UHGV virus genome: UHGV-0348865
Strand: one strand, 5' to 3'
DNA length: 64,000 bases
Source of the DNA: a virus
The notes under the pieces were generated by a model. The model saw nothing but the letters and a program-made list of their open reading frames with translations. It did no database searches and had not been told where the DNA came from. Positions 5,338 to 37,438 of this stretch are shown here, in pieces (the first letter of the stretch is position 1; every line of letters begins with the position of its first letter). Position numbers and translations under genes: made by a program.

Positions 5338-7446
5338 TCACTTGTTAGATTTGAGTTCAGCAATCTCTGCTTTAAGGGTGTCGATTTGTTCCATCAAAGC
5401 CAGAATAGCTTCGTGGTGAAGACCAATCGCAATACCAGTAGAATCTGGAGATAGGACACCTTTGACAACTGTTCCATCAGGGAGGGTTCTGTCTGGGCCT
5501 GTATAGACCAACTCTGGATAGATATCCTGAACTTCTTGAGCAATGAACCCAATACCAAACTGGCCCCCGTCTAAGCGTCGCCAAGTGTACCCATGTAGTT
5601 TCTTCATCTTCTCAAGAGGTTCTTCTATCTTAGCAATATCCTTTTTAATTCGGATATCCGAATTACTTACCCAGTTAGCAGGAGCTATGGCACTACCAAA
5701 CTGGTTAAACAACCAATCATAATTCACCCCTGCTCCTGAGAATCTAAGTATGCCAAAGCTATCAACGCCCACGTTCTCCGCAAGAGACATGGAGAAAACA
5801 GCGCCCTGTGTTCCTGGATTACCCGCCCTGCCTGTCAGCTCACAAATAAACGCCGGGGATGCTACAGGCCACAGACCATCAGACCCTAACTTAGAAGCTG
5901 CAATGAAACCTGACCCCACACCTCTAGTGTATGTTGGGATTGTTAGCTCCCCACCAAGGTCGAATCGAATCTCGGAACTTTTACCTTGATAGTCTTCAAT
6001 TCTCCATACACCACCTCCACGTTGACCATAATTACCATCAGCACGCATAGAAGATCTTATGTGCATAGAGTCTCCAATATTATAGTCAGAGCGAACCTCA
6101 CCACCCTTTATAGCCGTCCCTGTTCCAGGAGCAGCGGAATCTCCATTAATAACAGACCAAGAAGTATTAGCTGCAATAAATGCTCCGTTGGCACGAACTA
6201 CCCATACGCCAGATACTTTGTTTGGAACGATCTCTGCTGAGTTGTTGCGTCCGTAGACGGCGCTGGAACGGGAGGCATCGAAGGTGATTCGCCCGTATGC
6301 GTCCCCAGAAGCTGCCAACGCGGTGAGGTTCGTGGCTGGCGTAACAGTTCCCCCAGCAAACGCCCCGCTGGGACTGAAGTATATCCCACGTGTTCCGGCG
6401 TATGTGTTGTCTAAAGAGGCTGTGATATTAGGAGCGCTATTCAACGCGACAGTCATATCAGAAGCAGAAGTTTTTCCACCTCGGAAAAACAAACCTTCTA
6501 TAGAGCCATCCTGAACACCGTTCCAATCTGGTACACGGAAAGTAGTTGTACCATTACCTAAAGAATATTTGCCACGCTGAGATGGGTCTGCTAACCAATC
6601 AGAATCGTCAATAGGGGTTAGCATTTGAGCAAACACCCATAGTTCTGGATATTTAGCTCGTTCTAATAGCTGCCCATCTAAAGTCACGTCATATGGGTGT
6701 ATAAGTGCTCGGCTTGCAGCCATATGAGGAGTACCAATTCCGTAGTTCATAATACCGTTCATTGTGGCTCCACCAGAACCACCACTGTTACGAAGCTGTC
6801 TCATAGTCACAGCGTCATAATCACCTACACCATCTGCAATAGTAACAGGCTGTTGGAAAGTTACCTTCTGAGTAAACTGTTTGATATCAGAGTTAATTCC
6901 TGTACGGTTCACACCAATAGTGCGACCCTTAGAATCCTTAACATAAGAGCCAATCGCAGCAAAAGGCAAATCCTCAATCTCTGGGCGATAACGTTTAGAA
7001 TAAACTGGATACTTGGTTTCTACACCAGAATCGTTCTGGTCTACTACTTGAAGACGACCAGCAGAGTGAATCTCTACCCCTTGAACAGAAGAAGCATAGC
7101 TACCAATCTTGATTGCATTGTCAGTAGTGACTTTCATCATATCCACAGACTCTACACCATTAGCCCCAGCAGAACGGAAAGGGATGTTATTGTCTACGAA
7201 AGGGTCTGCTTTGAACAAAGCACCTTCCATGATAGGTTGAATTGAATCTAATACATAATCTTTAGATGCACCTTCTGTTTTAGTTTGATATACATCAGCT
7301 GCATCTGTTTTCTGTAGATATTTACCTGTTAAATCTACTGCACCAGCTACTCCGTCTACAGTAGAAACCCCAACAACTGCTGCATCTCTATTGATTACAA
7401 CATGTGGCATCATTATCCCAGATTTGGGCATTAATTCTCTAGCCAT
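5338..7446 (-). CDS. tail fibre protein 2 with tail-collar domain and C-terminal intramolecular chaperone (peptidase S74-like) domain
   Basis: collar-like motif KYSLGNGTTTFRVPDWNG; C-terminal SDIRIKKDI...GFIAQEVQDIYPELV chaperone-type motif; paralogous to C-terminal part of 7486..10773. Confidence 0.7.
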   Translation of the reverse strand: MARELMPKSGIMMPHVVINRDAAVVGVSTVDGVAGAVDLTGKYLQKTDAADVYQTKTEGASKDYVLDSIQPIMEGALFKADPFVDNNIPFRSAGANGVESVDMMKVTTDNAIKIGSYASSVQGVEIHSAGRLQVVDQNDSGVETKYPVYSKRYRPEIEDLPFAAIGSYVKDSKGRTIGVNRTGINSDIKQFTQKVTFQQPVTIADGVGDYDAVTMRQLRNSGGSGGATMNGIMNYGIGTPHMAASRALIHPYDVTLDGQLLERAKYPELWVFAQMLTPIDDSDWLADPSQRGKYSLGNGTTTFRVPDWNGVQDGSIEGLFFRGGKTSASDMTVALNSAPNITASLDNTYAGTRGIYFSPSGAFAGGTVTPATNLTALAASGDAYGRITFDASRSSAVYGRNNSAEIVPNKVSGVWVVRANGAFIAANTSWSVINGDSAAPGTGTAIKGGEVRSDYNIGDSMHIRSSMRADGNYGQRGGGVWRIEDYQGKSSEIRFDLGGELTIPTYTRGVGSGFIAASKLGSDGLWPVASPAFICELTGRAGNPGTQGAVFSMSLAENVGVDSFGILRFSGAGVNYDWLFNQFGSAIAPANWVSNSDIRIKKDIAKIEEPLEKMKKLHGYTWRRLDGGQFGIGFIAQEVQDIYPELVYTGPDRTLPDGTVVKGVLSPDSTGIAIGLHHEAILALMEQIDTLKAEIAELKSNK

Positions 7447-7485: not shown

Positions 7486-10400
7486 TTAACGAGCTTTCAG
7501 TACAGCTACTTCATTCTCTAGAGCTTCAATCTTGTCCAAGAGGACAAGAAGAACTTCGTGATGAAGAGCGGCTGCTACACCATAGGTGTCAACAGATTTA
7601 ACATCCTTCACAATTGTTCCATCTTTCAACTCCGTGTCAGAGAACTTAGTAACCTTGACGGCATCCGGAAAAACCTTCTCAACATCTTGAGCTAAGAAAC
7701 CAATACCATTGGGCTTAGAGAGTTTATCCAACCGCTCCCATGTTACACCCTTAATAGCTTTAAGTTTCTCTATAGGGTTTTCAATCCGTTTGATGTTCGT
7801 CTTAAGCCTCTCATCAGAGGTGCTTGCCCAATTTCCTGCTTGTGCCGTTCCATCAGGAAAGAACTTGAAGTCAGCAGCTGTTCCAGTACCACCATTCACA
7901 GAAATCTGAGCGTGCATCAACTCTGTTCCACCACCACGAACACCACCAAAAGTGTAACTGCCATCATACCAGTCACCAGAGAAATAGGAAACATACCCCG
8001 GAGTACTTTGGTTGAAATTGATCATCCTGATAGCGTTCTTCTCACTTGGTGCTACACCAACAGAATTGTTAGCCCTGACCAGCACGTCAGTAGGTCTTAA
8101 GTATGCATCAATTGTTAGTGCCCCGTCAGCCCTCTCTGTTCCAATCTGGGTGATAGCATTGGGAAATACCAGAGTACCAGCATTATTGAATTTCCATTCC
8201 TGGTTTCCATTAAGAATCTTAGCACCAGACTTATTAGAAGCCCCATCTATCTCTCCATAAGCAGACATAGTTGCTGAGTAGGTTAAATCTGTTCCTATCT
8301 TATATTCTGAACGAACCAGACCACCAGATACAGTAAACCCAGCCGATGGTTTAACATCATCGCTATTAATAACACTCCAAGAAGTATTAGCAGCAGTAAA
8401 GCCACCATTAGCACGAATCACCCAGACACCTATGAAGCTGTTGGTGCGGACTTCGGTCGTGTTGTCGCGACCATAAGCGGCGTTTGATAGGCCCGCTCGA
8501 AAGCCGACGGAAAGCGCTGGTGTGGTTCCTGCGCCTAACGGAATATTAAGTGCTGGATCAGCCGCAAACATCGCCCCCGTAGGATCTCCATATACGCTCC
8601 ATATGTTCGCACCAACGGAGCCTGTAATATCAGGCGCGGCGTTCTGCTGAACAGTACCGTCGTTGGCGCTGTTACCACCGTCACCGCGAGCATACAGACC
8701 AGAGATAGAACCGGTTTGAACGCCATTTCTATCAGGAACGCGGAAAGTAGTAGAACCATCACCTAAAGAGTATTTACCTCTTTTCTGAGGATCAGCCAGC
8801 CAGTCAGCATCTGTGATAGGGCTTAAGGCTTGAGCATAAGCCCATAAATCTGGATATGAAGTACGAGACAAAAGTTGTCCATCAGAAGGTACATCATTAG
8901 AGTGAATTAAAGCACGACTATCAATTAAACGGAAATCACCTATGTTGAAGTTGGACACTCCGTTTAAGCTTGCACCACTTCCACCACCTCCTTGGTTGCG
9001 TAATTGACGAAGGGTAACTGCATCTGAATCACTAACCGCATCACCACCTAAACGAGTGGGACCAATCAATCCTTCCAGTTTCGTAATATCTGAGTTAACC
9101 CCAGAAGAGTTGATAGCAGCAGCACCAATAGCAGCAGGAGTAGGTTTGTTACCTTCAGTGTAAAACTTATTCTCACCGCTAGGACCAACATGCACAGGAA
9201 CCGAAGCAGACAGCACTTTTGTGTTACTTGTATCGTTGCCAACCAAGACAGTACCGTCAGAACCAGAGGTGATCAAATTAACAGCAACACCATTACTAGA
9301 AGTGCCTGTTAATACAATACCTGTTCCTAGATTTAAGTGTCCTGTCATTTTACCACCAGAAGTAGGAAGAGCACCTAAATCAGAAGAGGTCAAAGCAACA
9401 TTACCTGTTACCTCGTCAGGAACTTTTCCATTAACTGCAACAACATATGGAACTTGAGCAAGAGGCTTACCATCATACTGAGCATCACTGGTAAGATTTG
9501 GAGATCGAATTGCTTCCCCTCCTGTCCAATCAGGCAGACGGATGTTGATGTAGTTTGTAGAATCCGCATCAGTGATACCGTCAGCAAGTTTACCCCAAGA
9601 ATAGTATTGCTTTGAACCAGCCTGCCACTCTGTCTCAGAAACTACCGGAAGCTGACCGTTGACCAAAGAAGCTCCTAAATCTGATGCAGTGTCTTTGGAA
9701 ACCAAACGACCATCAGCAGGCAAAATACCCGGGTAAGAAACAGGACGAGATGGGTCATATGGAAACATCAACAATTCACCAAGATACAGAGATGGGTTCC
9801 CTGTCGGGATGGTGATATCAATATTACCAGTTGAGTCAGGAATACGAGAGTTTACTGTTATTACCCTATTCTCTGTCTTAACTGGGGTTAATGTTTTGTT
9901 CGAAGCTACAGTATAAAATTCATATTTGTAATCTTCCCAAACCAGAACGTTCTCACCAGTTTTTCTGTTAACAGCATCGGCATCAGCCGCAGCTTTTGTT
10001 CTGTATGTTTTAACATAACCATCCACTTTCCCATCAACCTGAGATGTACTGTAAGATGCAACGTTTACGACATTATTTAAACCAACTGAAGTTTTATCTA
10101 AGACTAGATTAACATCACCGGTAGCTGGAGATCCTCCGTTCACTGCAACTGAACGAACAGATGGGATTAAGTTAGCGATATCCTCTAAGGTTGTTTTATG
10201 TACGGTATTATCGTCCTTATCAACATAGAATCCTAAATCACCAAGCTCAGGAATACCTGTAGGTGCTGTATCCAAGTCTTTAACAGAACCATCTTTTCCG
10301 GGTTCGCCTTCTGGGATACCTAAAGAGATTACACCAGTGTTAGGGTTAAAAGAACCAGTAGCTTGACTCCCCGGAGGAAGGGTAGTTACATCAACAGACA

Positions 10401-10773
10401 TTCCCAACAGGATATCAAGCTGTCTCTGAACTTCGATTAGTTTCTGGTTAATGAGAGCAACGGCATTATTAGCATCCGACACTGCTGCGTTAGTCTGAGC
10501 AATAAGTGTCATCAAACGAGCATCTTGATCTTTAAAGTCCTGTTTAAGTTCTTCGATATCTTGCTTCATTAAAACACCTTGTTGATACAGACGTTCTACT
10601 TCAGTGATCAAGTCATCAATTGTACCAAACTTAGACTCCGCTAGCAGTGCCCAATATTTGGAGTCAGCTGCATATTCTGCTGCTTGCTTGTAAGCTCCGA
10701 TAGAGCCTTCCTTAGCACCAAACTGCCCAACATCATTCACTGCATCAGGTGCTTGGTTATTATAAACGATCAT
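7486..10773 (-). CDS. tail fibre protein 1 with tail-collar domain and C-terminal intramolecular chaperone (peptidase S74-like) domain
   Basis: 1095-aa ORF; DAVTLRQLRN and KYSLGDGSTTFRVPDRNG motifs; C-terminal SDERLKTNIKRIENPIEKL...GFLAQDVEKVFPDAV motif. Confidence 0.7.
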   Translation of the reverse strand: MIVYNNQAPDAVNDVGQFGAKEGSIGAYKQAAEYAADSKYWALLAESKFGTIDDLITEVERLYQQGVLMKQDIEELKQDFKDQDARLMTLIAQTNAAVSDANNAVALINQKLIEVQRQLDILLGMSVDVTTLPPGSQATGSFNPNTGVISLGIPEGEPGKDGSVKDLDTAPTGIPELGDLGFYVDKDDNTVHKTTLEDIANLIPSVRSVAVNGGSPATGDVNLVLDKTSVGLNNVVNVASYSTSQVDGKVDGYVKTYRTKAAADADAVNRKTGENVLVWEDYKYEFYTVASNKTLTPVKTENRVITVNSRIPDSTGNIDITIPTGNPSLYLGELLMFPYDPSRPVSYPGILPADGRLVSKDTASDLGASLVNGQLPVVSETEWQAGSKQYYSWGKLADGITDADSTNYINIRLPDWTGGEAIRSPNLTSDAQYDGKPLAQVPYVVAVNGKVPDEVTGNVALTSSDLGALPTSGGKMTGHLNLGTGIVLTGTSSNGVAVNLITSGSDGTVLVGNDTSNTKVLSASVPVHVGPSGENKFYTEGNKPTPAAIGAAAINSSGVNSDITKLEGLIGPTRLGGDAVSDSDAVTLRQLRNQGGGGSGASLNGVSNFNIGDFRLIDSRALIHSNDVPSDGQLLSRTSYPDLWAYAQALSPITDADWLADPQKRGKYSLGDGSTTFRVPDRNGVQTGSISGLYARGDGGNSANDGTVQQNAAPDITGSVGANIWSVYGDPTGAMFAADPALNIPLGAGTTPALSVGFRAGLSNAAYGRDNTTEVRTNSFIGVWVIRANGGFTAANTSWSVINSDDVKPSAGFTVSGGLVRSEYKIGTDLTYSATMSAYGEIDGASNKSGAKILNGNQEWKFNNAGTLVFPNAITQIGTERADGALTIDAYLRPTDVLVRANNSVGVAPSEKNAIRMINFNQSTPGYVSYFSGDWYDGSYTFGGVRGGGTELMHAQISVNGGTGTAADFKFFPDGTAQAGNWASTSDERLKTNIKRIENPIEKLKAIKGVTWERLDKLSKPNGIGFLAQDVEKVFPDAVKVTKFSDTELKDGTIVKDVKSVDTYGVAAALHHEVLLVLLDKIEALENEVAVLKAR

Positions 10774-10782
10774 ATTATCTCC

Positions 10783-11535
10783 TTATACACGAGAAGTACG
10801 AATACCATAAATATCAGGCAAGCTGCTCTGAAGTCGAGTCATGTTATTCGGAATTGCGATAGGTGAACCTGAGTACTCTTGTTTCTTATGCTGCTCTACT
10901 ATTTCATCAAGGATAGCTTTTCCTAATGCAGACCATTTCTGAACTCCATTATCATCTTGAACAAATAAGCAAGCGTGACGTAGAGTGAAATACAGAAGAA
11001 GCTCTGGTGCAATAGTAAGGATAGCACTGGTATCTGTATCTTCATGGAATTCCGGTGGGTCCGCATAATAGCTAAGAATCACTGAGTTTTCTGCTGGAAT
11101 CAAAGGGCTTCCATCATCAGGATAAACAGGAGTGTCTGCTTCAATACTAGGATAGAAAATGAAACGACTCCCGAAACGAGCAAAGTTAACAGGCTGGTTG
11201 TTCCAGTGGGATGGGTTAATTGTTCCATGCTGTCTACGATAGCTAATCTCTTCCGGAGATGTTACTTGGAAGATTGTACCATCTTTGGCTCTCATCATCC
11301 ATTGAGCTTCTAAGTAATCAGGAGGAATATAAGCCACTCCATCTTTGATATCTAAATACACTTCTTTTTCCAGAGGAGGAATACGTAAGTTACGATAAAT
11401 CTCTTTCTCTGCAAAGTTAATAAAGTTTGGAATTTGATTAACAAATTCGTCATCGTCCCTATCTGCCCAGAGGGCCACGGCCTTCTTTAGCCACCCATAG
11501 GTATTGATGGGGTATTGAACATCTGGCATTGCCAT
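10783..11535 (-). CDS. virion structural protein, function unknown
   Basis: 250-aa ORF between capsid/Ig ORF and tail fibre; tight spacing to neighbours. Confidence 0.4.
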   Translation of the reverse strand: MAMPDVQYPINTYGWLKKAVALWADRDDDEFVNQIPNFINFAEKEIYRNLRIPPLEKEVYLDIKDGVAYIPPDYLEAQWMMRAKDGTIFQVTSPEEISYRRQHGTINPSHWNNQPVNFARFGSRFIFYPSIEADTPVYPDDGSPLIPAENSVILSYYADPPEFHEDTDTSAILTIAPELLLYFTLRHACLFVQDDNGVQKWSALGKAILDEIVEQHKKQEYSGSPIAIPNNMTRLQSSLPDIYGIRTSRV

Positions 11536-11597: not shown

Positions 11598-11629
11598 TTA
11601 AAACGAAAAAACCCCGCCCGAAGGCAGGG
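11598..11629 (-). terminator. rho-independent terminator after capsid/Ig ORFs
   Basis: CCCTGCCTTCGGGCGGGG hairpin followed by TTTTTTCGTTTT on the minus strand. Confidence 0.7.
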
Positions 11630-11636
11630 TCTAATT

Positions 11637-12149
11637 TTAAGCAGGTGTTACACCAGTAAAAGTGCATGTTGCATTGATAGACGGGTCAGCTGTCAAACTA
11701 GCTTGAACAGTAACTTCGCCACTTGCAGCAGCATCTAATTTTAACGAATTATTAGCGCTTATTGTACCAGCTTCTACGGGAGTTACAACAAGTGTGTAAT
11801 CATCAGCAACAGAATTGGTTACAGTAAACATGGTGTTGAAGTTAGTGGTAGTACCACCTACTTTACCTGTAATTGGCCCACGACTCACAATAGTAGGAGC
11901 AGGAGCAACAATTTCAGAAATGGTTGCTGTACCAGAAACACCTTCTAAAGTTGCAGTAATGGATACATCAGTGGATTGAGACGCACTCGGAGCAGTATAC
12001 AAACCAGACTGAGTGATAGAACCACCTCCTGTCACTGACCAAGTAAAGCCAGTTGTTTCGGTAGAACCATCACTTTTCTCCGCGCTTGCAGTGAACTGCC
12101 GAGTAGCCCCTGTCTCTAGACTTGCTAAAGACGCAGGGCTAACAGTCAC
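11637..12149 (-). CDS. Ig-like (Big_2-type) domain ORF; probably the C-terminal extension of the capsid protein made by -1 frameshifting
   Basis: Ig-like sequence; its frame is open upstream through the capsid 3' end and across a GGGAAAG slippery heptamer at 12173-12179. Confidence 0.5.
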   Translation of the reverse strand: MTVSPASLASLETGATRQFTASAEKSDGSTETTGFTWSVTGGGSITQSGLYTAPSASQSTDVSITATLEGVSGTATISEIVAPAPTIVSRGPITGKVGGTTTNFNTMFTVTNSVADDYTLVVTPVEAGTISANNSLKLDAAASGEVTVQASLTADPSINATCTFTGVTPA

Positions 12150-12160
12150 ACTGTCTACTG

Positions 12161-13219
12161 TTACGCCGCCACCTTTCCCGCAGCAGTGAACAGAACGCCG
12201 GAAGCATACGGGTTGCGGTGACGCAGACCAACTTCCATTTCAATCATCCACTTCTCGTAAGAACCGTCTTTAGCCAGTTCAGTACGTTTCGGAGCACGCA
12301 GAACCATCTGAGTCCAGTCAGCGCTACGGAAGAAGTAAACTGCATCGGTAGGCATCCAACGGTTAACGATGATTTTGTAGCTCTGGCCCAGCGGGTCAGT
12401 GATGCTGTTAACTTCGTAGATGAACTGCTTGGTGTTCTCAAAGATACGCTTACGTGAACCCTGAGTATTTTCTTGCAGGCCAGCGAAGATCTTAGCATGA
12501 GCCGGGTTGATCATGATGATATCTGCTTCAGAACCAGCGGTATACAGTTGCAGAGTCATATCAAAGATATCAGCTTCGTCGAAACCAATGTTAGTGGTCG
12601 GGTTAGAAGCATTCTGTGCAACTTTAACAGTTACTGCACCAGTATCCGGGTCAGCAGGACCATTCTTAGTCTTGTCAACAACGCCACCAGACAGACCACC
12701 GTGAGCACACAGGAACTGGAATGCACCAGTCTTACGAGCTGCATGGGTGTCGTTCTTACCAATCTGATCTGGATCAGTTGCAGAGTTAGTCAGGTACTGG
12801 TCAGCCAGAACGTCGGTACGAGCCTGACCGGACAGAAGGATTTTCTCGAGGTCACGCTTAATCTCTTTACCTTTCTTCTCCAGCTGATACATCAGTTCAC
12901 GACCACGACCGTAGTTAGCGGTGGTGTTAGCAGTATCAGAAACACGAACAACCTTACGCAGAATCTGAGTAACGTTAGATTTGATAACAGTCGGTTTCAT
13001 TTCGCCGTCTTCAGCACGAGAGCCTTCGACGTGTGCGTTATTACCGTCAACGCTTGCCAGTGCATCGGTCTGCCAGCTAAAGATAGTCTGGTTGATAGAC
13101 TCTTTACCGGTCATAGATACGAACGGGGTATCCTGAGGGGACAGAACAGAAATCCAGTTAGCAAAAGAAAGTTTTTTACCATTCTGGTCATACGATACAA
13201 ATAAAGTTGGATTAGCCAT
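12161..13219 (-). CDS. major capsid protein
   Basis: 352-aa ORF downstream of portal and scaffold-like genes, strong ribosome-binding site, followed by Ig-like extension ORF; assignment by context. Confidence 0.6.
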   Translation of the reverse strand: MANPTLFVSYDQNGKKLSFANWISVLSPQDTPFVSMTGKESINQTIFSWQTDALASVDGNNAHVEGSRAEDGEMKPTVIKSNVTQILRKVVRVSDTANTTANYGRGRELMYQLEKKGKEIKRDLEKILLSGQARTDVLADQYLTNSATDPDQIGKNDTHAARKTGAFQFLCAHGGLSGGVVDKTKNGPADPDTGAVTVKVAQNASNPTTNIGFDEADIFDMTLQLYTAGSEADIIMINPAHAKIFAGLQENTQGSRKRIFENTKQFIYEVNSITDPLGQSYKIIVNRWMPTDAVYFFRSADWTQMVLRAPKRTELAKDGSYEKWMIEMEVGLRHRNPYASGVLFTAAGKVAA

Positions 13220-13260: not shown

Positions 13261-14337
13261 TTAATCTACGAGGAATTTGAATGCGTCTTCGTGACTAACG
13301 CGACCCTCTGCGAATGCCTTGGCAACCTTAGCGTTGTCGGGCTTATTGGAAGTGCGAGACTTTGCAGCATCAGACTTCACAACCTTGCGTGGAGCACCGG
13401 GACGTTTAATCTTAGCCATCACCTGTTGCTTACCTTTATCAAATTGGTATGCTTTATGGAGAGCTAGGAAAATAGACGGACGGTTTTCCTTCAATACTTC
13501 TTCTTCAGTAGCACCTAAGTCAATTGCGTATTGCATTAAGTTTTGATATAAGTTTTCATCCCAATTTGGAATCTCACGTTTCAGAATATTAACACATTCA
13601 ATGCTCTTGGCTTGGAAAGCTTCCTGCTCTTTAGCTGCTGCTTCCTGCTTAATACGGGCCTGAGCCTGTTCAAGCTGTTGACGGCGAGCTGTGTACTTCT
13701 CTAGGAAACGTTTGTTTTCAACATATGCTTGAGGATCTTCTACTGCAAGCTTGTCCCAATCAAAACCGTTATAATCTTCAATTACTCGGTCTGCTTCTAA
13801 AGACGCTAGTTCTAATACATCCTTCAAACCTACTACACGTTCCTCAAATGCTTCCATATGACGCTGAAGAGTTGATTCTCGTTCTGTCATATCAGCACCA
13901 GTAAGATAGCCATTAGAAAGTTCTTCAATAGTCATCTCACGTCCATCAGGAAGGGTGATAACGGTTTCGTAGTCTACATCAAAGACCTCACCTTCACCGT
14001 CAACAGAATCATCTTCATATTCTGCATCGCTTGAATCTTCTTCCTCTTGTTCTTCTGCTTCAGAGGATTCATCTTCATCTTCTTCGACTTCGCCTTCCTC
14101 TTCACGATCTTCCCAACCATCTTCATCTTCGAACTTAAGCTCATCGCTTTCACCGAGAAGGTCGGTATCAAAGTCGAAATCGTCACCGTCTTTTTCCGGG
14201 AACTCATCGTCAATGTCCACTTCTGGTTCTTGTTCAGATTCTAATCGACCGAGTTCTTCTTTGAAAGAACCTTTCAGGTCATCCAGTTGGAGGAAAGATT
14301 TAAAATCGTTCGGGTCAATATAATTATCTTGTGGCAT
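13261..14337 (-). CDS. scaffolding-like protein (highly acidic N-terminal half)
   Basis: 358-aa ORF with long Asp/Glu-rich tract and helical C-terminal part; located between portal and capsid. Confidence 0.4.
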   Translation of the reverse strand: MPQDNYIDPNDFKSFLQLDDLKGSFKEELGRLESEQEPEVDIDDEFPEKDGDDFDFDTDLLGESDELKFEDEDGWEDREEEGEVEEDEDESSEAEEQEEEDSSDAEYEDDSVDGEGEVFDVDYETVITLPDGREMTIEELSNGYLTGADMTERESTLQRHMEAFEERVVGLKDVLELASLEADRVIEDYNGFDWDKLAVEDPQAYVENKRFLEKYTARRQQLEQAQARIKQEAAAKEQEAFQAKSIECVNILKREIPNWDENLYQNLMQYAIDLGATEEEVLKENRPSIFLALHKAYQFDKGKQQVMAKIKRPGAPRKVVKSDAAKSRTSNKPDNAKVAKAFAEGRVSHEDAFKFLVD

Positions 14338-14582: not shown

Positions 14583-16826
14583 TTACTTTTTACTTCCAAG
14601 ACGTTTGCCTGGAATCCGTGAATCTTTGAGAGAAGCTTGTTGCTCTTTCTTAGTTACATTAGCTTCTTTCTTTTGGAGTTCCAAAGTTTTGTCCTGAACA
14701 CGAGCTTGCTGAACAATCTTCTCTTGGTCTACCTGATGAGACATAACCATCTGCAATTCTTTCAGTACAGATTCATACTGACGGACCTGCTGTTGCATAA
14801 GAGCTAACTTGTGCTTAGCTTGTTCCAGAGTAGCATTGTTATCTTCTTTACGGTTTTCCAGAGTCATTTCATCTGCTGCATTTTCTTGCTTGAACTGCAA
14901 CTCTTCCTGACGCAGACTTAATTCATCCGCAGCTTTCTGCTGTTCGAATGTAGTACGTTCACGTTGGTCGAATGCATCAGCAATCATCTTCTGAGAAGAA
15001 GCCTGTACGTTCTCAACCTGAGCTTTAGTCATCTCGAGCTGAAGGATTTCCATCGGAGAAGGTTCTGGAGGCTGATACTGTTCCAGAGGCAGAAGGTATT
15101 TATGTGTATCTTTAATACCCATCAACTCAAAGATCTGTGCAGTCATGTAACGGTCTTGCTCCAAACCAAAGAGAGGTGCTAACTGTGCATCTGCTGCAAT
15201 CAGCTGTTTCAAGCTAATCAGTTTCTGTGCACGTTCTGCTTTCTCGTTAGGAGAGATAGCCACAACAACTTGGAGGTTGTGACGAGCTGGTAATTGTTTT
15301 GGATTTACCTGAACCATACCACGAGGGGTTTGTACCTCAATAGGAACTTCACCGTTTTCTCTGATAAGGCTGTAAATACCACGCATCAACTCAACCATAC
15401 CATTGTGAGCAATGTTACGACATACCATACGGAGACGGTTCTGTGCAGCATTCATCATCAAGCCTACGGTTGCATAAGCGTTATCATTCTTAAACACATC
15501 AGGGTTGATACCCATGCCTAGTTTGGTTACACCTGTACGTGTCTCTTTAAGCTCCTCAGACATACCTAGGAGGCCATCAATACCTTGAGGTAGGTTATGG
15601 TATGGGAACAGGTCAATAGCGTCCTGACGTTCCATTTCAACCACTCCACCGGGACGGTTATCAAGCAGAGAGCGACGATCGTATGCACCAACAAGAGCCT
15701 TGTATCGACCATAGTTAGCATTGTTGACGTTATCAATGTAACCACGAACTAGCGCGGTACGTAAATCTTGAATATCTTTCGTAATGTCATAGACCGATTG
15801 ACCATAGAAGGAACCCGGAATCGGATACGGGCAGAAGGTTACAAACGGAATGTGAGTCACTTCTTCAGTGTGAAGGATATGCTCACCAGCTTGAATAACC
15901 TGATAGAGTTTAGACTCTTTATTCTTATCTAGAACACCAGTACGAATGTAGTGCTCATAAACCCAAACCATAGAAGCGATATCTTCAGTATCTGTACCAA
16001 TATCAGCATCAATATCCTGACGCCAGTCAGTACGAGACCAAGCAACTGTAGATTGAGTAGTATCCATCGTGTCTGTCCAGTCGTTAAATGCTTCAATCTC
16101 ATCTTTAGGGAAGCCCATAGCAACCAGATCTTCTTTAGAACGACGTACACGATGACAGAAGTATTGTGCATCTGCAAAAGAGGTAGCATGTTCGTCAACA
16201 AAGATTTGCTCTGAAGGAACATATTCAACTTTCACACGTTTAACAGTTTGTTCGTAAGTAACTTTAACATCTACTGTACCGTCTTCATTTTCTTCAGTGA
16301 AGATTTCCAGATTCTTGAGTCCACCAGCTTCTAATCCCTGAACATATGCAGCCAATGCTTCCGGTGGTACACCTTCAGCTTCTTCAGTTTGAGTAGAAGT
16401 TTGCTCATCCCAATAATATTTGATAAAAGAGTTACGAGTAACCAGACATTCTTGTGCAGCAGAAGAGATAATATTGTATCCCGGATTGTCACGCAGAAGA
16501 ATTTGGTTAACCAATTTAGTTGCTACATCAGCAGCATCAGAATCCTGTTGGTTGTCAGCTACGAAAGTAACTGCTTCATCACCAGAACAGAATACGTTAA
16601 TAATATCTTGCAATGTACCGTTAACAGATTCCCAAACAGTACGATCTACCCAACTAGAGCTGCCAGCAGTTACTGGTGCAGGTAAGTTACCATAGAAATA
16701 TTCCCAAGCTTCACGAGCATAGCCCTTAACAGCCATGTCCACGTAGCCTTGAGCATAATTAAAACGACGTTGAAGGTCAACACGTAACTCGTCCAACACC
16801 TCTTCACTATATTTTTGCTTAGCCAT
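14583..16826 (-). CDS. portal protein
   Basis: 747-aa ORF immediately downstream of large terminase in the late operon; C-terminal coiled-coil; assignment by size and context. Confidence 0.55.
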   Translation of the reverse strand: MAKQKYSEEVLDELRVDLQRRFNYAQGYVDMAVKGYAREAWEYFYGNLPAPVTAGSSSWVDRTVWESVNGTLQDIINVFCSGDEAVTFVADNQQDSDAADVATKLVNQILLRDNPGYNIISSAAQECLVTRNSFIKYYWDEQTSTQTEEAEGVPPEALAAYVQGLEAGGLKNLEIFTEENEDGTVDVKVTYEQTVKRVKVEYVPSEQIFVDEHATSFADAQYFCHRVRRSKEDLVAMGFPKDEIEAFNDWTDTMDTTQSTVAWSRTDWRQDIDADIGTDTEDIASMVWVYEHYIRTGVLDKNKESKLYQVIQAGEHILHTEEVTHIPFVTFCPYPIPGSFYGQSVYDITKDIQDLRTALVRGYIDNVNNANYGRYKALVGAYDRRSLLDNRPGGVVEMERQDAIDLFPYHNLPQGIDGLLGMSEELKETRTGVTKLGMGINPDVFKNDNAYATVGLMMNAAQNRLRMVCRNIAHNGMVELMRGIYSLIRENGEVPIEVQTPRGMVQVNPKQLPARHNLQVVVAISPNEKAERAQKLISLKQLIAADAQLAPLFGLEQDRYMTAQIFELMGIKDTHKYLLPLEQYQPPEPSPMEILQLEMTKAQVENVQASSQKMIADAFDQRERTTFEQQKAADELSLRQEELQFKQENAADEMTLENRKEDNNATLEQAKHKLALMQQQVRQYESVLKELQMVMSHQVDQEKIVQQARVQDKTLELQKKEANVTKKEQQASLKDSRIPGKRLGSKK

Positions 16827-17063: not shown

Positions 17064-18605
17064 TTAGTAACTCTGATTCCATCTGCTTACGTTTGCCTCA
17101 TACAAAGAAGCACTTCCGTAGCTAACGTCATGCTTAGAGCGACCACGATGTGTAACAGAGCACGCTGAATAGCGCATTGCATCCATTAAGTCATCATGTT
17201 CTTTAATAATCTTACCAACCTTACGGTGATATCTAGCTTTCTCTTCAAATAGCTTAGCGTTAGCGGCTGTGTTAAAGATTTTAAAGCGTCCACTCATCAT
17301 TCTTTCTCGGATATCCGTGATTCCCGGTTCTACAAAGAAGTTCTTTTTACCATCCATTCCAATTTTGTTGTAGAAGGTCTCACTCTGTACGTTAACTCCT
17401 GCATTCTTATAGAATTGAGCAACAGATGAACCACTACCTTTCTCAATATTGTCCGCATCGTGCGGTAGGATGACAGGAATCCACTGACCACGACCATTAA
17501 TAGCTGGAGCATGATACACTGGAGTAAAGCCACCTTCTTTATATGAGTCGTAAACATAGATAGTATCCGTGTTTGCATCGTAAGCTGTCCAAACAGCAGC
17601 AGTTGGGTGATCAATACCAATATCAATTGCACAGACACGTTTCCACGTATCAGGAATTTCGAATGGTTCACATTTAATTGTGTCATCCGATACATCATAA
17701 ATCAAACCACTTCCTAACAATGGCATACCTTTCGAACGCATCTCTAACTGCCACGCTGGAATACCTTCAGTCATATCTTTTATATCTTGGTCAGTGATAT
17801 GTCCACCTAGGTCTGCATGAGCATCCCACCAAGAAGCATTCTGGAAATATAGAGAACCTGTGTTCTCATCCCCTTCACCTTTCATAAATTTATCTACCAG
17901 TTCAGTTAAACCGTTCTCTGGTGTAGCTGTAATTGTAACTAGACCTTTAGTTGTGAGTGTACGTGTGACGCACTGTGCGAATATAGCCATAGACTCGTAT
18001 GGATCTTCTTCGTCTAACCAAATGTAGTCAACTGTTGCACCCATCAATGTGTGTTCACCCTGTTGGGTTGAACGGAATTCTAATGTACTTAAACCGTCAA
18101 ACTCTCCTCTTTCGTTTTGATGTTTGATTTGTACGATTTGAAGTTTGTTACCATCTCGCTCTATCGTGTCAATGACGATAGCATCACGAGGAATGACACC
18201 TGTCCCCAATAAGTTTGTATCCTTTCCGATAGGCGTACCAAACAATTCCTTTTGCAACACTTTCCTTGTGGAATCCCCTGTAATACCAACTGCCCATGCT
18301 AAGATAGGTCTTTTAAATTTATATCCTGTCCACCAAGTTGGGTAGCGACCTGTGACATGACAAGCAAACTCGTATGCCTCGCTGTAAGATTTACCAACAC
18401 GGTTCGCTGCACACAAGAATCTAAAGCGATGCTTCAATCCTGCTGCATAAAATTTCTTTTGGAAGTCATACGCCTTGAAAGACAAAATCTTATTATACTT
18501 CCTCCATTGGTCACGCTCTTTCAACATATTCAATAGTGCTTTCTTTTCCTCTACACTAAGGTTGTTACCAGTTAGAGCTTCATAAATTTGTTTATCTAAT
18601 GACAT
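17064..18605 (-). CDS. terL: terminase large subunit
   Basis: 513-aa ORF; Walker A-like ANRVGKS near N-terminus; Asp/Glu-rich nuclease-like C-terminal half; precedes portal. Confidence 0.75.
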   Translation of the reverse strand: MSLDKQIYEALTGNNLSVEEKKALLNMLKERDQWRKYNKILSFKAYDFQKKFYAAGLKHRFRFLCAANRVGKSYSEAYEFACHVTGRYPTWWTGYKFKRPILAWAVGITGDSTRKVLQKELFGTPIGKDTNLLGTGVIPRDAIVIDTIERDGNKLQIVQIKHQNERGEFDGLSTLEFRSTQQGEHTLMGATVDYIWLDEEDPYESMAIFAQCVTRTLTTKGLVTITATPENGLTELVDKFMKGEGDENTGSLYFQNASWWDAHADLGGHITDQDIKDMTEGIPAWQLEMRSKGMPLLGSGLIYDVSDDTIKCEPFEIPDTWKRVCAIDIGIDHPTAAVWTAYDANTDTIYVYDSYKEGGFTPVYHAPAINGRGQWIPVILPHDADNIEKGSGSSVAQFYKNAGVNVQSETFYNKIGMDGKKNFFVEPGITDIRERMMSGRFKIFNTAANAKLFEEKARYHRKVGKIIKEHDDLMDAMRYSACSVTHRGRSKHDVSYGSASLYEANVSRWNQSY

Positions 18606-31340: not shown

Positions 31341-31419
31341 GGGGGTGTACCTCACCCGTCTTCTAAACGGGCGTTAATCGAGTAATTGGAGTATGCAGGT
31401 TCGAGTCCTGTCTCCCCCT
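31341..31419 (+). ncRNA. tRNA-like element with canonical T-arm; possible tRNA (anticodon-like loop CTTCTAA would give UCU/Arg) but D-arm not resolved by eye
   Basis: T-arm GCAGG-TTCGAGT-CCTGT; 7-bp acceptor-like pairing GGGGGTG/CTCCCCC; flanked by 10-nt inverted repeat AGAGTTCTTA/TAAGAACTCT. Confidence 0.4.
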
Positions 31420-36244: not shown

Positions 36245-37438
36245 ATGTTTCCAGTAACATTAGAAGATACTGAAGGTAATGTTTTAACGGTCAACCCTCC
36301 TTGTTATGGGTTCCTTCAGCTTCGCAACTATAATGGTGGCGTTGATGAAGACGACGAAGATGATGACTACTTCGACCCTAACATGTATGAGGCAACTCAT
36401 GGATGGAATATGCACGTTCGAGTGTGGCATAAAGAAGCCAACGTTCGTAGTGCTGACGGGGAAGAATTCTTGTTAAGCCGAGAGATGGATATGTGTAAAA
36501 TCAAGCATATCTGGAACTCCGGAACTCATATGAAGATGTTAGGTTTTAGACGTTGGCGTGATGAAAAACCTGTATCCGCAGCTTTAGGTTGGGGTGCAAT
36601 TGATCACGAAGGCGAGCTTAAAAATAACATTGAGCACTGGAACGACAAAAACCCTGAACATCGAACCACACCTCGTGCTGTACTGGAAGCTATGGAAGCA
36701 TTTGTGGACAAAGATCGTCCCTCCTGTTTACGCTGGCACGAGAAAGGTTTTATGGGGGTAGCAACTGAGAACGTTCCTGCTGATCGTTGTCTGTTCTATT
36801 TGATGTTAGACCGAACCTTCTATTGTGAAGATGAAGAGAGTCAAGTTGAAACCTTCCTTCATAAATGGTTGGTTGAAGGTTGGACAATCCTTCAAGCTTA
36901 TGTCTACTCACGAATGGTTAGCACTCACACTAACCTCTTGGGAGAAAAGAAAGCAACTCTGGTTGGTAACGATTGGGATGCTTGTATTTTCCCAGCGTCA
37001 CTATTTACGGTTGGCATGGCTGATAAATATGCCGAAGCATTTAAAGTGCCTTGGCGTCAACAGTCATATAGAGATGGTTGTGGTCACTTTCGTGATGAAG
37101 ACTTTAAGTGGATTCATTATGAGAATGATGAAACAGCAGAGCTACGAGTGAACAACTCAATGTTCTTGCCGGTTATGCACCCTGATCTAGTAAAAGATGA
37201 GTCAGAAATACTCAAAGGTGACAACCTTCTGGTTACCTTTGCTCGTCGGGTATCTAAAGATGAAAGAACAGCTGACAGATTAGTCTACGCTTATCGCGCT
37301 GAGACTAAAGATATGTTCAATATTTATAATATTGTTCAGCGATTCAGTAGCGGAACTCTGGACCAAAGTTCGGAGTATTCAGTGATTCCGTCCTCTGAGT
37401 GGGATGGTATTATGAGCGGATTATTTTTAGGAAAATAA
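36245..37438 (+). CDS. hypothetical protein, first gene of ligase/amidotransferase cluster
   Basis: 397-aa ORF, no motif recognised. Confidence 0.5.
   Translation: MFPVTLEDTEGNVLTVNPPCYGFLQLRNYNGGVDEDDEDDDYFDPNMYEATHGWNMHVRVWHKEANVRSADGEEFLLSREMDMCKIKHIWNSGTHMKMLGFRRWRDEKPVSAALGWGAIDHEGELKNNIEHWNDKNPEHRTTPRAVLEAMEAFVDKDRPSCLRWHEKGFMGVATENVPADRCLFYLMLDRTFYCEDEESQVETFLHKWLVEGWTILQAYVYSRMVSTHTNLLGEKKATLVGNDWDACIFPASLFTVGMADKYAEAFKVPWRQQSYRDGCGHFRDEDFKWIHYENDETAELRVNNSMFLPVMHPDLVKDESEILKGDNLLVTFARRVSKDERTADRLVYAYRAETKDMFNIYNIVQRFSSGTLDQSSEYSVIPSSEWDGIMSGLFLGK

Follow-up and report, generated by a model that had tools for sequence, protein, structure and literature searches.

A probable programmed -1 frameshift at the end of the capsid gene of a phiEco32-like phage, and the Ig-like extension that it would add to the capsid protein

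The capsid gene and the open frame behind it

The window analyzed here, a stretch of 64,000 nucleotides from the virus genome UHGV-0348865, is by its sequence that of a phiEco32-like (Kuravirus) E. coli phage. Its genes are arranged in the order terminase, portal, scaffold, capsid, Ig, adaptor-like virion protein and tail fibres, and the nucleotide sequence of the capsid gene is 96-98.6% identical to those of FS2B, DE5, phiEco32 and SU10. Between phiEco32 and the window, 96.6% of positions are identical across the 1.8 kb compared, and all are identical over the 147 nt compared around the end of the gene (30 nt upstream of the heptamer described below to 110 nt downstream). The features of the locus are as follows.

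12161..13219, minus strand: major capsid protein gene in the zero frame (352 aa, 38.8 kDa; from the ORF list)
12173..12179, minus strand: slippery heptamer G_GGA_AAG, in the X_XXY_YYZ register of the capsid ORF
12164..12172, minus strand: overlap zone, read as Val-Ala-Ala-stop in the zero frame and as a Gly-rich linker (GGG) into the Ig domain in the -1 frame
12163..12161, minus strand: capsid stop codon TAA, zero frame
11637..12172, minus strand: extension in the -1 frame, 178 new residues, two tandem Ig-like (Big_2-type) beta-sandwich domains
12147..12149, minus strand: GTG that opens the mechanical 170-aa 'Ig' ORF, most likely an internal Val codon rather than a start
12137..12167, minus strand: predicted hairpin 1, 10 bp with one bulge, which includes the capsid UAA and begins 5 nt after the heptamer
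12112..12132, minus strand: predicted hairpin 2, GUCUUUAG-CAAGU-CUAGAGAC, also the apex of an alternative long stem-loop (12149..12091)
11609..11632, minus strand: intrinsic terminator-like hairpin and T-run from the terminator scan (10-bp stem, 6 GC pairs, TTTCGTTTTA tail)

The capsid ORF is preceded by a Shine-Dalgarno-like TAGGAGC upstream of its ATG. It matched a single Pfam family, SU10_MCP (E = 7.6e-77), as well as the major head protein family PHROG 1328 (1.6e-117), and the solved capsid protein of SU10 (PDB 7z45, major head protein) aligned over the full 352 residues (E = 1.2e-232). By both capsid sequence identity and genomic context it is a Kuravirus major capsid gene; the first-pass annotation of the window had called it a major capsid gene.

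Read directly, the 3' end of the gene on the minus strand (12181..12161) is GCG GGA AAG GTG GCG GCG TAA, and the end of the ORF and the heptamer that had been reported here were correct to the base and in the right register. Translation in the -1 frame from 12179 gave 180 stop-free codons (GKGGGVTVDSVTVSPASL...TGVTPA*), 174 of which lie past the zero-frame stop. This frame ends at the TAA at 11639..11637 and is shared with the mechanical ORF 11637..12149, so that the open passage into this ORF stood as first described. The appended stretch had earlier been put at about 180 residues; since the slip site encodes Gly and Lys in either frame, the extension would add 178 new residues after Lys349. 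The expected fusion would have 527 aa (56.0 kDa). For peptide mapping, the fusion stretch ...FTAAGKGGGVTV... is the region that a chymotrypsin or GluC peptide would span, and the tryptic peptide GGGVTVDSVTVSPASLASLETGATR has its first eight residues encoded upstream of the GTG at 12149.

A search of every mechanical ORF of 100 aa or more in the window found 57 in-frame X_XXY_YYZ heptamers, and the site at the capsid end had the longest run past the zero-frame stop (174 codons). The locus has both a heptamer in the zero-frame register and a long open coding -1 frame, as expected of a -1 frameshift. The only other long case, TTTAAAG at 37040 with 95 codons past the stop, was judged spurious, its ORF being nested in the 397-aa ORF 36245..37438. 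No Shine-Dalgarno-like motif was found 10-14 nt upstream of the capsid heptamer.

The extension was modeled by AlphaFold2 as two beta-sandwich domains with a pLDDT of 93.7. The best PDB match of the model in Foldseek was the tandem Big domains of Leptospira LigA (E = 1.4e-10), other matches included NCAM, cadherins and Big_2-CBM56, and the sequence matched PHROG 13745, 'Ig domain containing protein', at 4.3e-75. A Pfam search with the 180-aa extension of the window gave no significant family, and Big_2 (PF02368) was not reached even at E = 5. The homologous first domain of Bas89 passes the Big_2 cut-off of 22.8 bits with 34.6 bits, and Privateer, L006 and SE131 also pass it. The Ig-like label given earlier to the extension therefore holds by the modeled fold and not by Pfam. 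Compared with the class of Ig-like C-terminal decoration domains of Fraser et al. 2006, the extension has the fold and the attachment to the C-terminus of a virion structural protein (by the GGG linker, in the -1 frame, after the capsid protein), but gives no Pfam Ig-family match at the gathering score.

In the terminator scan no signal separates the capsid stop from the Ig reading frame. The terminator-like signal lies directly 3' of the stop of the Ig extension, and the SU10 record annotates a terminator at the same place.

Conservation of the slip site and predicted RNA structure

To assess conservation, we compared 14 related sequences from Kuravirus, Suseptimavirus and Privateervirus, with capsid identities of about 57-99%. 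The heptamer GGGAAAG is kept in all 14; its absence from homologous phages that still make a fusion had been named in the first-pass annotation as evidence that would speak against a frameshift. A long -1 ORF follows the heptamer in 13 of them, with lengths of 171-481 codons (171, 180-182, 402-405 and 479-481) and varying domain content. The exception is the SU10 record KM044272, in which a 1-nt insertion in the stretch 8396..8440 closes the -1 frame after 13 codons, although the ORF further downstream is undamaged. Diverged relatives therefore share both the heptamer and the frame relation, as expected of a programmed -1 frameshift. Within the overlap, the zero-frame tail drifts among the relatives (VAA, AVAA, AGA, AAA, VEA, VAAA), and in the -1 frame the overlap always encodes a Gly/Ser linker (GGG, GSGG, GGS).

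The region downstream of the heptamer was subjected to a prediction of its secondary structure, a check that had been suggested for a stimulatory element. Such an element may be a hairpin or pseudoknot located 5-9 nt 3' of the slip site, or a Shine-Dalgarno-like sequence on its 5' side. The minimum free energy fold of 12172..12110 was -23.8 kcal/mol (z = -2.6) and placed hairpin 1 at a distance of 5 nt from the heptamer. Among eight distinct relatives, 98.8% of the cells of hairpin 1 were paired, but eight of its ten pairs are invariant and thus give no evidence from covariation. We regard hairpin 1 as a candidate frameshift stimulator. In hairpin 2, two pairs covary (U-A, G-C and A-U in one; G-C and U-G in the next), which in a sample of only eight sequences is suggestive only; one of these changes alters an amino acid. 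RNAalifold favoured the long stem-loop 12149..12091, and the covarying pairs fit this structure and the two-hairpin model equally. The long stem-loop starts 23 nt after the heptamer, and because of this spacing we do not prefer it as the stimulator. Note that the hairpin drawn in the SU10 paper (CUGCUGC-GGGAAAG-GUGGCGG) is unlikely to be a stimulator, since the heptamer lies in its loop and a ribosome on the site would have melted it.

Frameshifting and the other readings of the locus

We propose that the Kuravirus capsid gene undergoes a programmed -1 ribosomal frameshift that yields a minor capsid-Ig fusion subunit, and from the sequence comparison, the structural models and the published work on relatives we give this reading a probability of roughly 0.85. 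Most ribosomes would read GGA AAG GUG GCG GCG and terminate at the UAA, giving the 352-aa capsid protein. A minority would slip one base back on G_GGA_AAG, so that the P-site tRNA-Gly moves from GGA to GGG and the A-site tRNA-Lys from AAG to AAA. For these ribosomes translation would run on in the -1 frame, first across a Gly-Gly-Gly linker and then through the two Ig-like domains in tandem. The 527-aa product would be built into the head as a minor subunit of the capsid and would expose its Ig domains on the surface. A slip fusing the capsid protein to the Ig-like domain had been proposed in the first-pass annotation, and the conserved heptamer, the non-conserved GTG, the Ig fold that begins upstream of it and the literature on near-identical phages all argue for it. 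For this isolate we infer slippage; the protein evidence comes from the relatives.

The capsid frameshift at GGGAAAG is already known for phiEco32, SU10, Privateer and YF01 and is not new here (PMC4281155, PMC7881722, PMC9965538). In SU10, a slip at GGGAAAG was described as fusing CDS9 and CDS10 'as in phiEco32' (PMC4281155). The mass spectrometric coverage of the SU10 'fusion', 50.3% of about 522 aa, is by our arithmetic close to what is expected from the capsid protein only (78.1% of 352 aa; PMC4281155, Table 2), and because capsid-only peptides would give about the same coverage, it is weak evidence of the fusion. For Privateer, two capsid bands were seen on SDS-PAGE and the longer form was detected by mass spectrometry (PMC7881722); the same paper states that the shifted product was also seen in phiEco32 and SU10. 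The YF01 paper gives the frameshift mechanism for the whole group, with an isoform of 892 aa in YF01 itself (PMC9965538). Cryo-EM of the SU10 head revealed no density for Ig domains, and SDS-PAGE of this phage gave no longer band. Together with the closed frame in this phage, these observations indicate that the extension can be lost and that the virions of at least one relative are without it.

The Ig ORF could instead be an independent gene, started at the GTG at 12149 or at another internal codon, whose free 170-aa product of roughly 17 kDa decorates the capsid by non-covalent binding while the heptamer is incidental. The ORF is indeed a separate CDS in nearly all GenBank records, including those of phiEco32, SU10 and nearly all recent Kuravirus genomes, Privateer having a joined CDS. 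In SU10 the ORF remains intact despite the broken -1 connection, and the authors of the SU10 cryo-EM study considered that gp10 might be a loosely attached minor capsid protein. However, separate ORFs are the default output of gene callers. For the same reason a database search with the extension, which returned 24 relatives, all with separate ORFs of varying length and with no capsid-Ig fusion called, was uninformative, since gene callers give separate ORFs in either case. The GTG at 12149 is most likely an internal Val codon and not a start: there is no Shine-Dalgarno sequence within 5-12 nt before it (the upstream sequence is AGGTGGCGGCGTAACAGTAGACAGT), and the codon at this position is GTA or ATA in six of the seven other distinct relatives. 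It encodes residue 11 of the AlphaFold2 model, in which beta-strand 1 spans residues 8-14, so the strand begins three residues upstream of it. The starts annotated in relatives are scattered (+12, +33, +84 and +127 nt after the capsid stop) and would truncate this strand of the Ig fold. An independent gene would also have no need of a -1 frame that stays open upstream past the heptamer, as it does in 13 of the 14 relatives. The Gly/Ser linker kept in that frame, and the position of the terminator after the Ig stop instead of the capsid stop, likewise argue against such a gene, and we consider it improbable.

That the locus is a decaying remnant, with dispensable Ig domains and with frameshifting unused or negligible in this isolate, appears very improbable to us. 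SU10 propagates with a closed -1 frame and with heads that show no Ig density, as this reading would predict, yet the YF01 authors found SU10 to be the only member of the group with such a lesion (PMC9965538). In the window the 180-codon ORF is intact and its fold is predicted with confidence, and the heptamer, frame relation and linker are kept across three genera, in which even swapped extensions still land in the -1 frame. Transcriptional slippage of the RNA polymerase, or a sequencing error that splits one long in-frame ORF, is a generic alternative for overlapping ORFs in adjacent frames; nothing at this locus speaks for either, and we find both hardly credible. Transcriptional slippage is supported by homopolymer runs of seven or more, whereas the longest runs at the site are GGG and AAA, and the same frame offset in more than a dozen independently sequenced genomes excludes a sequencing error.

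Comparable systems and biological meaning

The programmed frameshift that we favour matches those of phiEco32 gp11/gp12, SU10 CDS9 and CDS10, YF01 gp8 and the major and minor capsid proteins of Privateer in the gene, the GGGAAAG site, the -1 direction and the Ig-type extension, and nothing material differs. The window has the shorter form of the extension, with two domains and 180 codons counted from the heptamer, whereas other members of the group have 402-481 codons. The heptamer of lambda G/GT, G_GGA_AAG, is reportedly identical to that of the window. The lambda site lies in a tail assembly chaperone gene and not in a capsid gene, and its product is an assembly factor absent from virions. 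The lambda frameshift rate is cited as roughly 3.5% (PMC9965538).

The locus had been likened to T7 gene 10A/10B, in which a -1 shift at the end of the major capsid gene yields roughly 10% of a longer capsid protein that enters the heads (as cited in PMC9965538). The likeness holds for a -1 shift at the capsid end. T7, however, slips at G_GUU_UUC, where re-pairing in the P site is non-canonical; a remote 3' element takes part, and the part added in 10B is not Ig-like (PMC5009743). The site in the window is a different one and the only Pfam family is SU10_MCP; its element would work like T7 gene 10 without being a member of that class. Closer parallels are gene 10A/10B of T3 and the major head protein of Lactobacillus phage A2, in which, according to PMC5009743 and to Fraser et al. 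2006 as cited, a -1 shift near the end of the capsid gene likewise gives a minor species with an Ig-like C-terminal domain. Their capsids belong to another family and their slip sites and extensions are unrelated to those of the window; the mechanism is analogous and the element not homologous.

Two remoter relatives, Salmonella phage SE131 and Cronobacter phage A24, have a plain capsid gene and beside it a paralogue whose product ends in an in-frame Big_2 tail, and no slippery heptamer was found in the capsid genes of either phage. These paralogues have the same SU10_MCP capsid fold with C-terminal Big_2 domains, but their stoichiometry is set by two genes and not by frameshifting. The family appears to have three routes to a minor Ig-bearing capsid protein: the canonical heptamer, an apparently non-canonical G_GUA_AAG site in LAh_6-like phages, and a second copy of the capsid gene that carries the tail in frame.

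Phage Ig domains in general have been proposed to adhere weakly to carbohydrates on host or mucus surfaces, and by analogy those of the capsid described here may do so as well. The near-identical phage ES17 has been reported to adhere to mucin, and its authors did not consider the capsid extension. We suggest, as a tentative and rather unlikely pair of readings taken jointly, that the conserved tandem hairpins (12167..12137 and 12132..12112) tune the ratio of plain to Ig-bearing capsid protein, and that the Ig domains of the capsid, instead of or together with the tail fibre, contribute to the mucin adherence of ES17. Our literature searches found no publication on either the tuning by the hairpin pair or mucin adherence through the capsid Ig domains.

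For annotation, the joined CDS, as in the Privateer record, would be the correct description of this locus, whereas most records give a separate gene with arbitrary start codons. The frameshift would set the fraction of Ig-displaying subunits on a prolate head of 715 subunits. Adhesion to glycans of the host or its mucosa plausibly depends on this fraction, a point of interest because relatives such as ES17 are under development for gut decolonisation.

Probable slip site and reading frames at the end of the capsid gene

The late structural module occupies the minus strand between about 19.9 and 0.7 kb. The 1.8-kb stretch round the end of the capsid gene shares 96-98.6% identity with Escherichia phages FS2B, DE5, phiEco32 and SU10 and with about 80 further records, each covering at least 80% of the stretch; all of the matching records are prolate-headed podophages of the Kuravirus group.

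Features of the late structural module and of the candidate frameshift region
17064..18605, minus strand, terminase large subunit
14583..16826, minus strand, portal
13261..14337, minus strand, scaffold
12161..13219, minus strand, major capsid protein (ORF list, Pfam and PDB match)
12167..12137, minus strand, predicted hairpin 1 (10 bp)
12132..12112, minus strand, predicted hairpin 2
11637..12149, minus strand, Ig ORF, mechanically called
11632..11609, minus strand, intrinsic terminator
10783..11535, minus strand, virion structural protein in the adaptor position
7486..10773 and 5338..7446, minus strand, two adjoining tail-fibre genes
Minus strand, 1005-aa tail fibre / host-specificity protein with an Ig-domain region

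The two tail-fibre genes have a C-terminal family in common: phrog_6921 spans the entire 702-aa protein and residues 550-1095 of its 1095-aa neighbour, which suggests a duplicated or mosaic receptor-binding module. Elsewhere, Rfam called a tRNA at 31341..31419 (plus strand; 33.2 bits, with the gathering score at 29), while ARAGORN found none in the whole window. Relatives have an annotated tRNA-Arg at the syntenic position, beside a homing endonuclease. The copy in the window aligns poorly with it: the CUUCUAA (UCU) anticodon loop and the T-arm are kept, but the D-arm region is unusual and the variable region longer. A 161-nt megablast query from this locus hit nothing in the phage collection.

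The capsid ORF ends GCG GGA AAG GTG GCG GCG TAA (TAA at 12163..12161), and the heptamer G_GGA_AAG occupies 12179..12173 in the X_XXY_YYZ register. From 12179 the -1 frame has 180 open codons (GKGGGVTVDSVTVSPASL...GVTPA) up to the TAA at 11639..11637, in the same frame as the Ig ORF. Reading off and translating the minus strand thus confirmed all the coordinates of the first-pass annotation, which had proposed a -1 frameshift fusing the major capsid protein to an Ig-like domain. The window's mechanical ORFs of 100 aa or more together hold 57 in-frame X_XXY_YYZ heptamers, of which this one has the longest run beyond the zero-frame stop (174 codons). The runner-up, TTTAAAG at 37040 (plus strand; ORF 36825..37151; 132 open -1 codons, 95 beyond the stop), was rejected as an artefact of mechanical ORF calling, since its carrier is nested within the 397-aa ORF 36245..37438. 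G_GGA_AAG is also the heptamer of lambda G/GT. The lambda site slips at a rate of a few per cent (PMC9965538).

The identity of the capsid protein is secure, with matches to Pfam SU10_MCP (7.6e-77) and to the solved SU10 capsid protein 7z45 (E = 1.2e-232). A Pfam search with the extension gave nothing significant; its Ig-like label is borne out by PHROG 13745 'Ig domain containing protein' (4.3e-75) and by an AlphaFold2 model from 20 homologues (mean pLDDT 93.7) with two beta-sandwich domains. Among solved structures, the model best matched the Leptospira LigA tandem Big domains (E = 1.4e-10); NCAM, cadherin and Big_2-CBM56 structures came next. A ribosome slipping in tandem by -1 on G_GGA_AAG would continue into the Ig frame and make a 527-aa, 56.0-kDa product, and unslipped reading would give the 352-aa, 38.8-kDa capsid protein. 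Comparative, start-codon, structural and literature evidence supports this interpretation, and we consider it very probable (about 85%) that such slippage yields the capsid-Ig protein beside the plain capsid protein.

Conservation in relatives and the start of the Ig frame

Capsid loci for comparison were taken from IMG/VR and GenBank phages. GGGAAAG was invariant in all 14 genomes compared: 12 from Kuravirus and Suseptimavirus, with 93-99% capsid identity, and two from Privateervirus, with 57%. In 13 of them the next ORF lies in the -1 frame, the exception being the SU10 record. The extension itself has been exchanged repeatedly: counted from the heptamer, it has 180-182 codons in phiEco32-like phages, 402-405 in TH43 and EK010, 479-481 in SR02 and Bas89, and 171-179, with I-set and Big_2 domains, in Privateer and 3H10_20, where the stop directly abuts the slip site (GAG GGA AAG TAA). 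Within the 9-12 nt overlap, the zero-frame tail drifts among relatives (VAA, AVAA, AGA, AAA, VEA, VAAA), whereas the -1 frame stays a Gly/Ser linker (GGG, GSGG, GGS) followed by VTVD(S/T)(V/I)TVSP, the pattern predicted by selection on the -1 reading.

Alternatively, the Ig ORF could be expressed from an independent start, for which the GTG at 12149 had been named. The 25 nt before this codon (AGGTGGCGGCGTAACAGTAGACAGT) contain no Shine-Dalgarno sequence at a usable distance, whereas the neighbouring genes have GGAG, AGGAG, AAGGAGG and AAGGAG, and six of the seven other distinct relatives have GTA or ATA at this position. Annotated starts of the Ig gene are scattered between records (+12, +33, +84 and +127 nt past the capsid stop). 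In the AlphaFold2 model of the -1 product, the first beta-strand comprises residues 8-14 and the GTG encodes residue 11, so that a protein starting there would miss part of the strand. The terminator, annotated also in SU10, lies 3' of the Ig stop, and a scan between the capsid stop and the Ig frame found none. These observations argue against an independent start.

Predicted RNA structure around the heptamer

As a check, the first-pass annotation had suggested predicting RNA structure downstream of the heptamer, for a stimulatory hairpin or pseudoknot. The 63-nt fragment 12172..12110 folds into two predicted hairpins (-23.8 kcal/mol, z = -2.6), of which hairpin 1 encloses the UAA and begins 5 nt past the heptamer. 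This gap is the canonical spacing. Covariation was uninformative for hairpin 1: among eight distinct sequences 98.8% of cells are paired, and eight of the ten pairs never vary. Hairpin 2 has two covarying pairs (U-A, G-C, A-U and G-C, U-G), one of which joins the third position of a Ser codon, where the change is synonymous, to the second position of another codon, where it turns Glu/Gln into Pro or Leu. RNAalifold favours a long stem-loop (12149..12091) sharing its apex with hairpin 2, but this stem-loop starts 23 nt from the slip site. Covariation in eight sequences, with the structure derived from the same alignment, is suggestive only. No Shine-Dalgarno-like element was found upstream of the heptamer. 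In the minimum free energy fold, the heptamer forms the 7-nt loop of a 7-bp hairpin at 12166..12186 (minus strand; CUGCUGC-GGGAAAG-GUGGCGG), and the hairpin in the SU10 genome paper likewise places it in the loop (PMC4281155); its relevance is doubtful, since it would already be unwound once a ribosome stood on the heptamer.

Published frameshifts and other routes to an Ig-bearing capsid

The frameshift is already published for this phage group. In SU10, GGGAAAG in CDS9 was described as a ribosomal slippage site through which the Ig-like CDS10 is fused to the major head protein 'as in phage phiEco32', and the paper's proteomics table gives an alternative form of 55.4 kDa (PMC4281155). Coverage was 50.3% of the ~522-aa fusion and 78.1% of the 352-aa capsid protein (PMC4281155); by our own arithmetic the former equals the yield from capsid-only peptides, so these data do not prove the fusion. 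SU10 carries a premature TAG in the -1 frame 39 nt downstream (PMC9965538), which fits its cryo-EM study, where neither a longer band nor Ig density was seen (PMC9509320). We confirmed this lesion as a 1-nt insertion (ACTGTCTACTG vs AGTGTGACTG; SU10 capsid locus L014 1622..1663, KM044272 about 8390..8431), which closes the -1 frame 13 codons past the slip site and also extends predicted hairpin 1 to a perfect 9-bp stem. For Privateer, major and minor capsid proteins were annotated from the same signal with two bands and mass spectrometry, and the shifted product was stated as observed in phiEco32 and SU10 (PMC7881722). The YF01 paper asserts the mechanism for the whole Kuravirus-like group (PMC9965538). 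Ig-like domains added by frameshifting to capsid and tail proteins of phages form a recognised class, including T3 gene 10 and Lactobacillus phage A2 (Fraser et al. 2006; reviewed in PMC5009743).

In Aeromonas phage LAh_6 (locus L018 3400..3690) and four IMG/VR contigs (L006-L009, 4400..4930), the end of the capsid gene is overlapped in the -1 frame by an Ig-domain ORF. The sequence conserved there, AAG GTA AAG (CCC/GCG) TAA, has G_GUA_AAG in place of a canonical heptamer. The LAh_6 record lists the ORF as a separate 'putative tail protein' whose start falls within the Ig domain. Since P-site G_GU re-pairing is known for T7 gene 10 (G_GUU_UUC; PMC5009743), G_GUA_AAG is by analogy a plausible candidate non-canonical slip site in LAh_6-like phages. 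Salmonella phage SE131 (L017 1485..4261) has two tandem capsid genes, the second of 586 aa with SU10_MCP and then in-frame Big_2 domains; Cronobacter phage A24 (L019 2492..4596) has a similar tandem second copy of 361 aa with in-frame C-terminal Big_2 domains, and Aeromonas phage APT65 (L020 569..3427) has three capsid paralogues in tandem. The ends of these capsid genes contain no slippery heptamer.

Nearly all deposited Kuravirus genomes give the extension as a CDS of its own, with start codons that are inconsistent between records, the Privateer record being the sole joined CDS among those inspected. The remaining value of the finding lies partly in its annotation as a joined CDS instead of a separate 'Ig domain containing protein'. 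Phage Ig domains in general have been proposed to mediate weak carbohydrate adhesion. Mucin binding by ES17, a near-identical phage, was credited by its authors to the tail fibre, leaving the capsid extension aside. In SE131 and A24, the second capsid copy gives a minor Ig-bearing capsid species by a different genetic route, and these cases support the view that selection favours such a minority species, frameshifting being one means to it.
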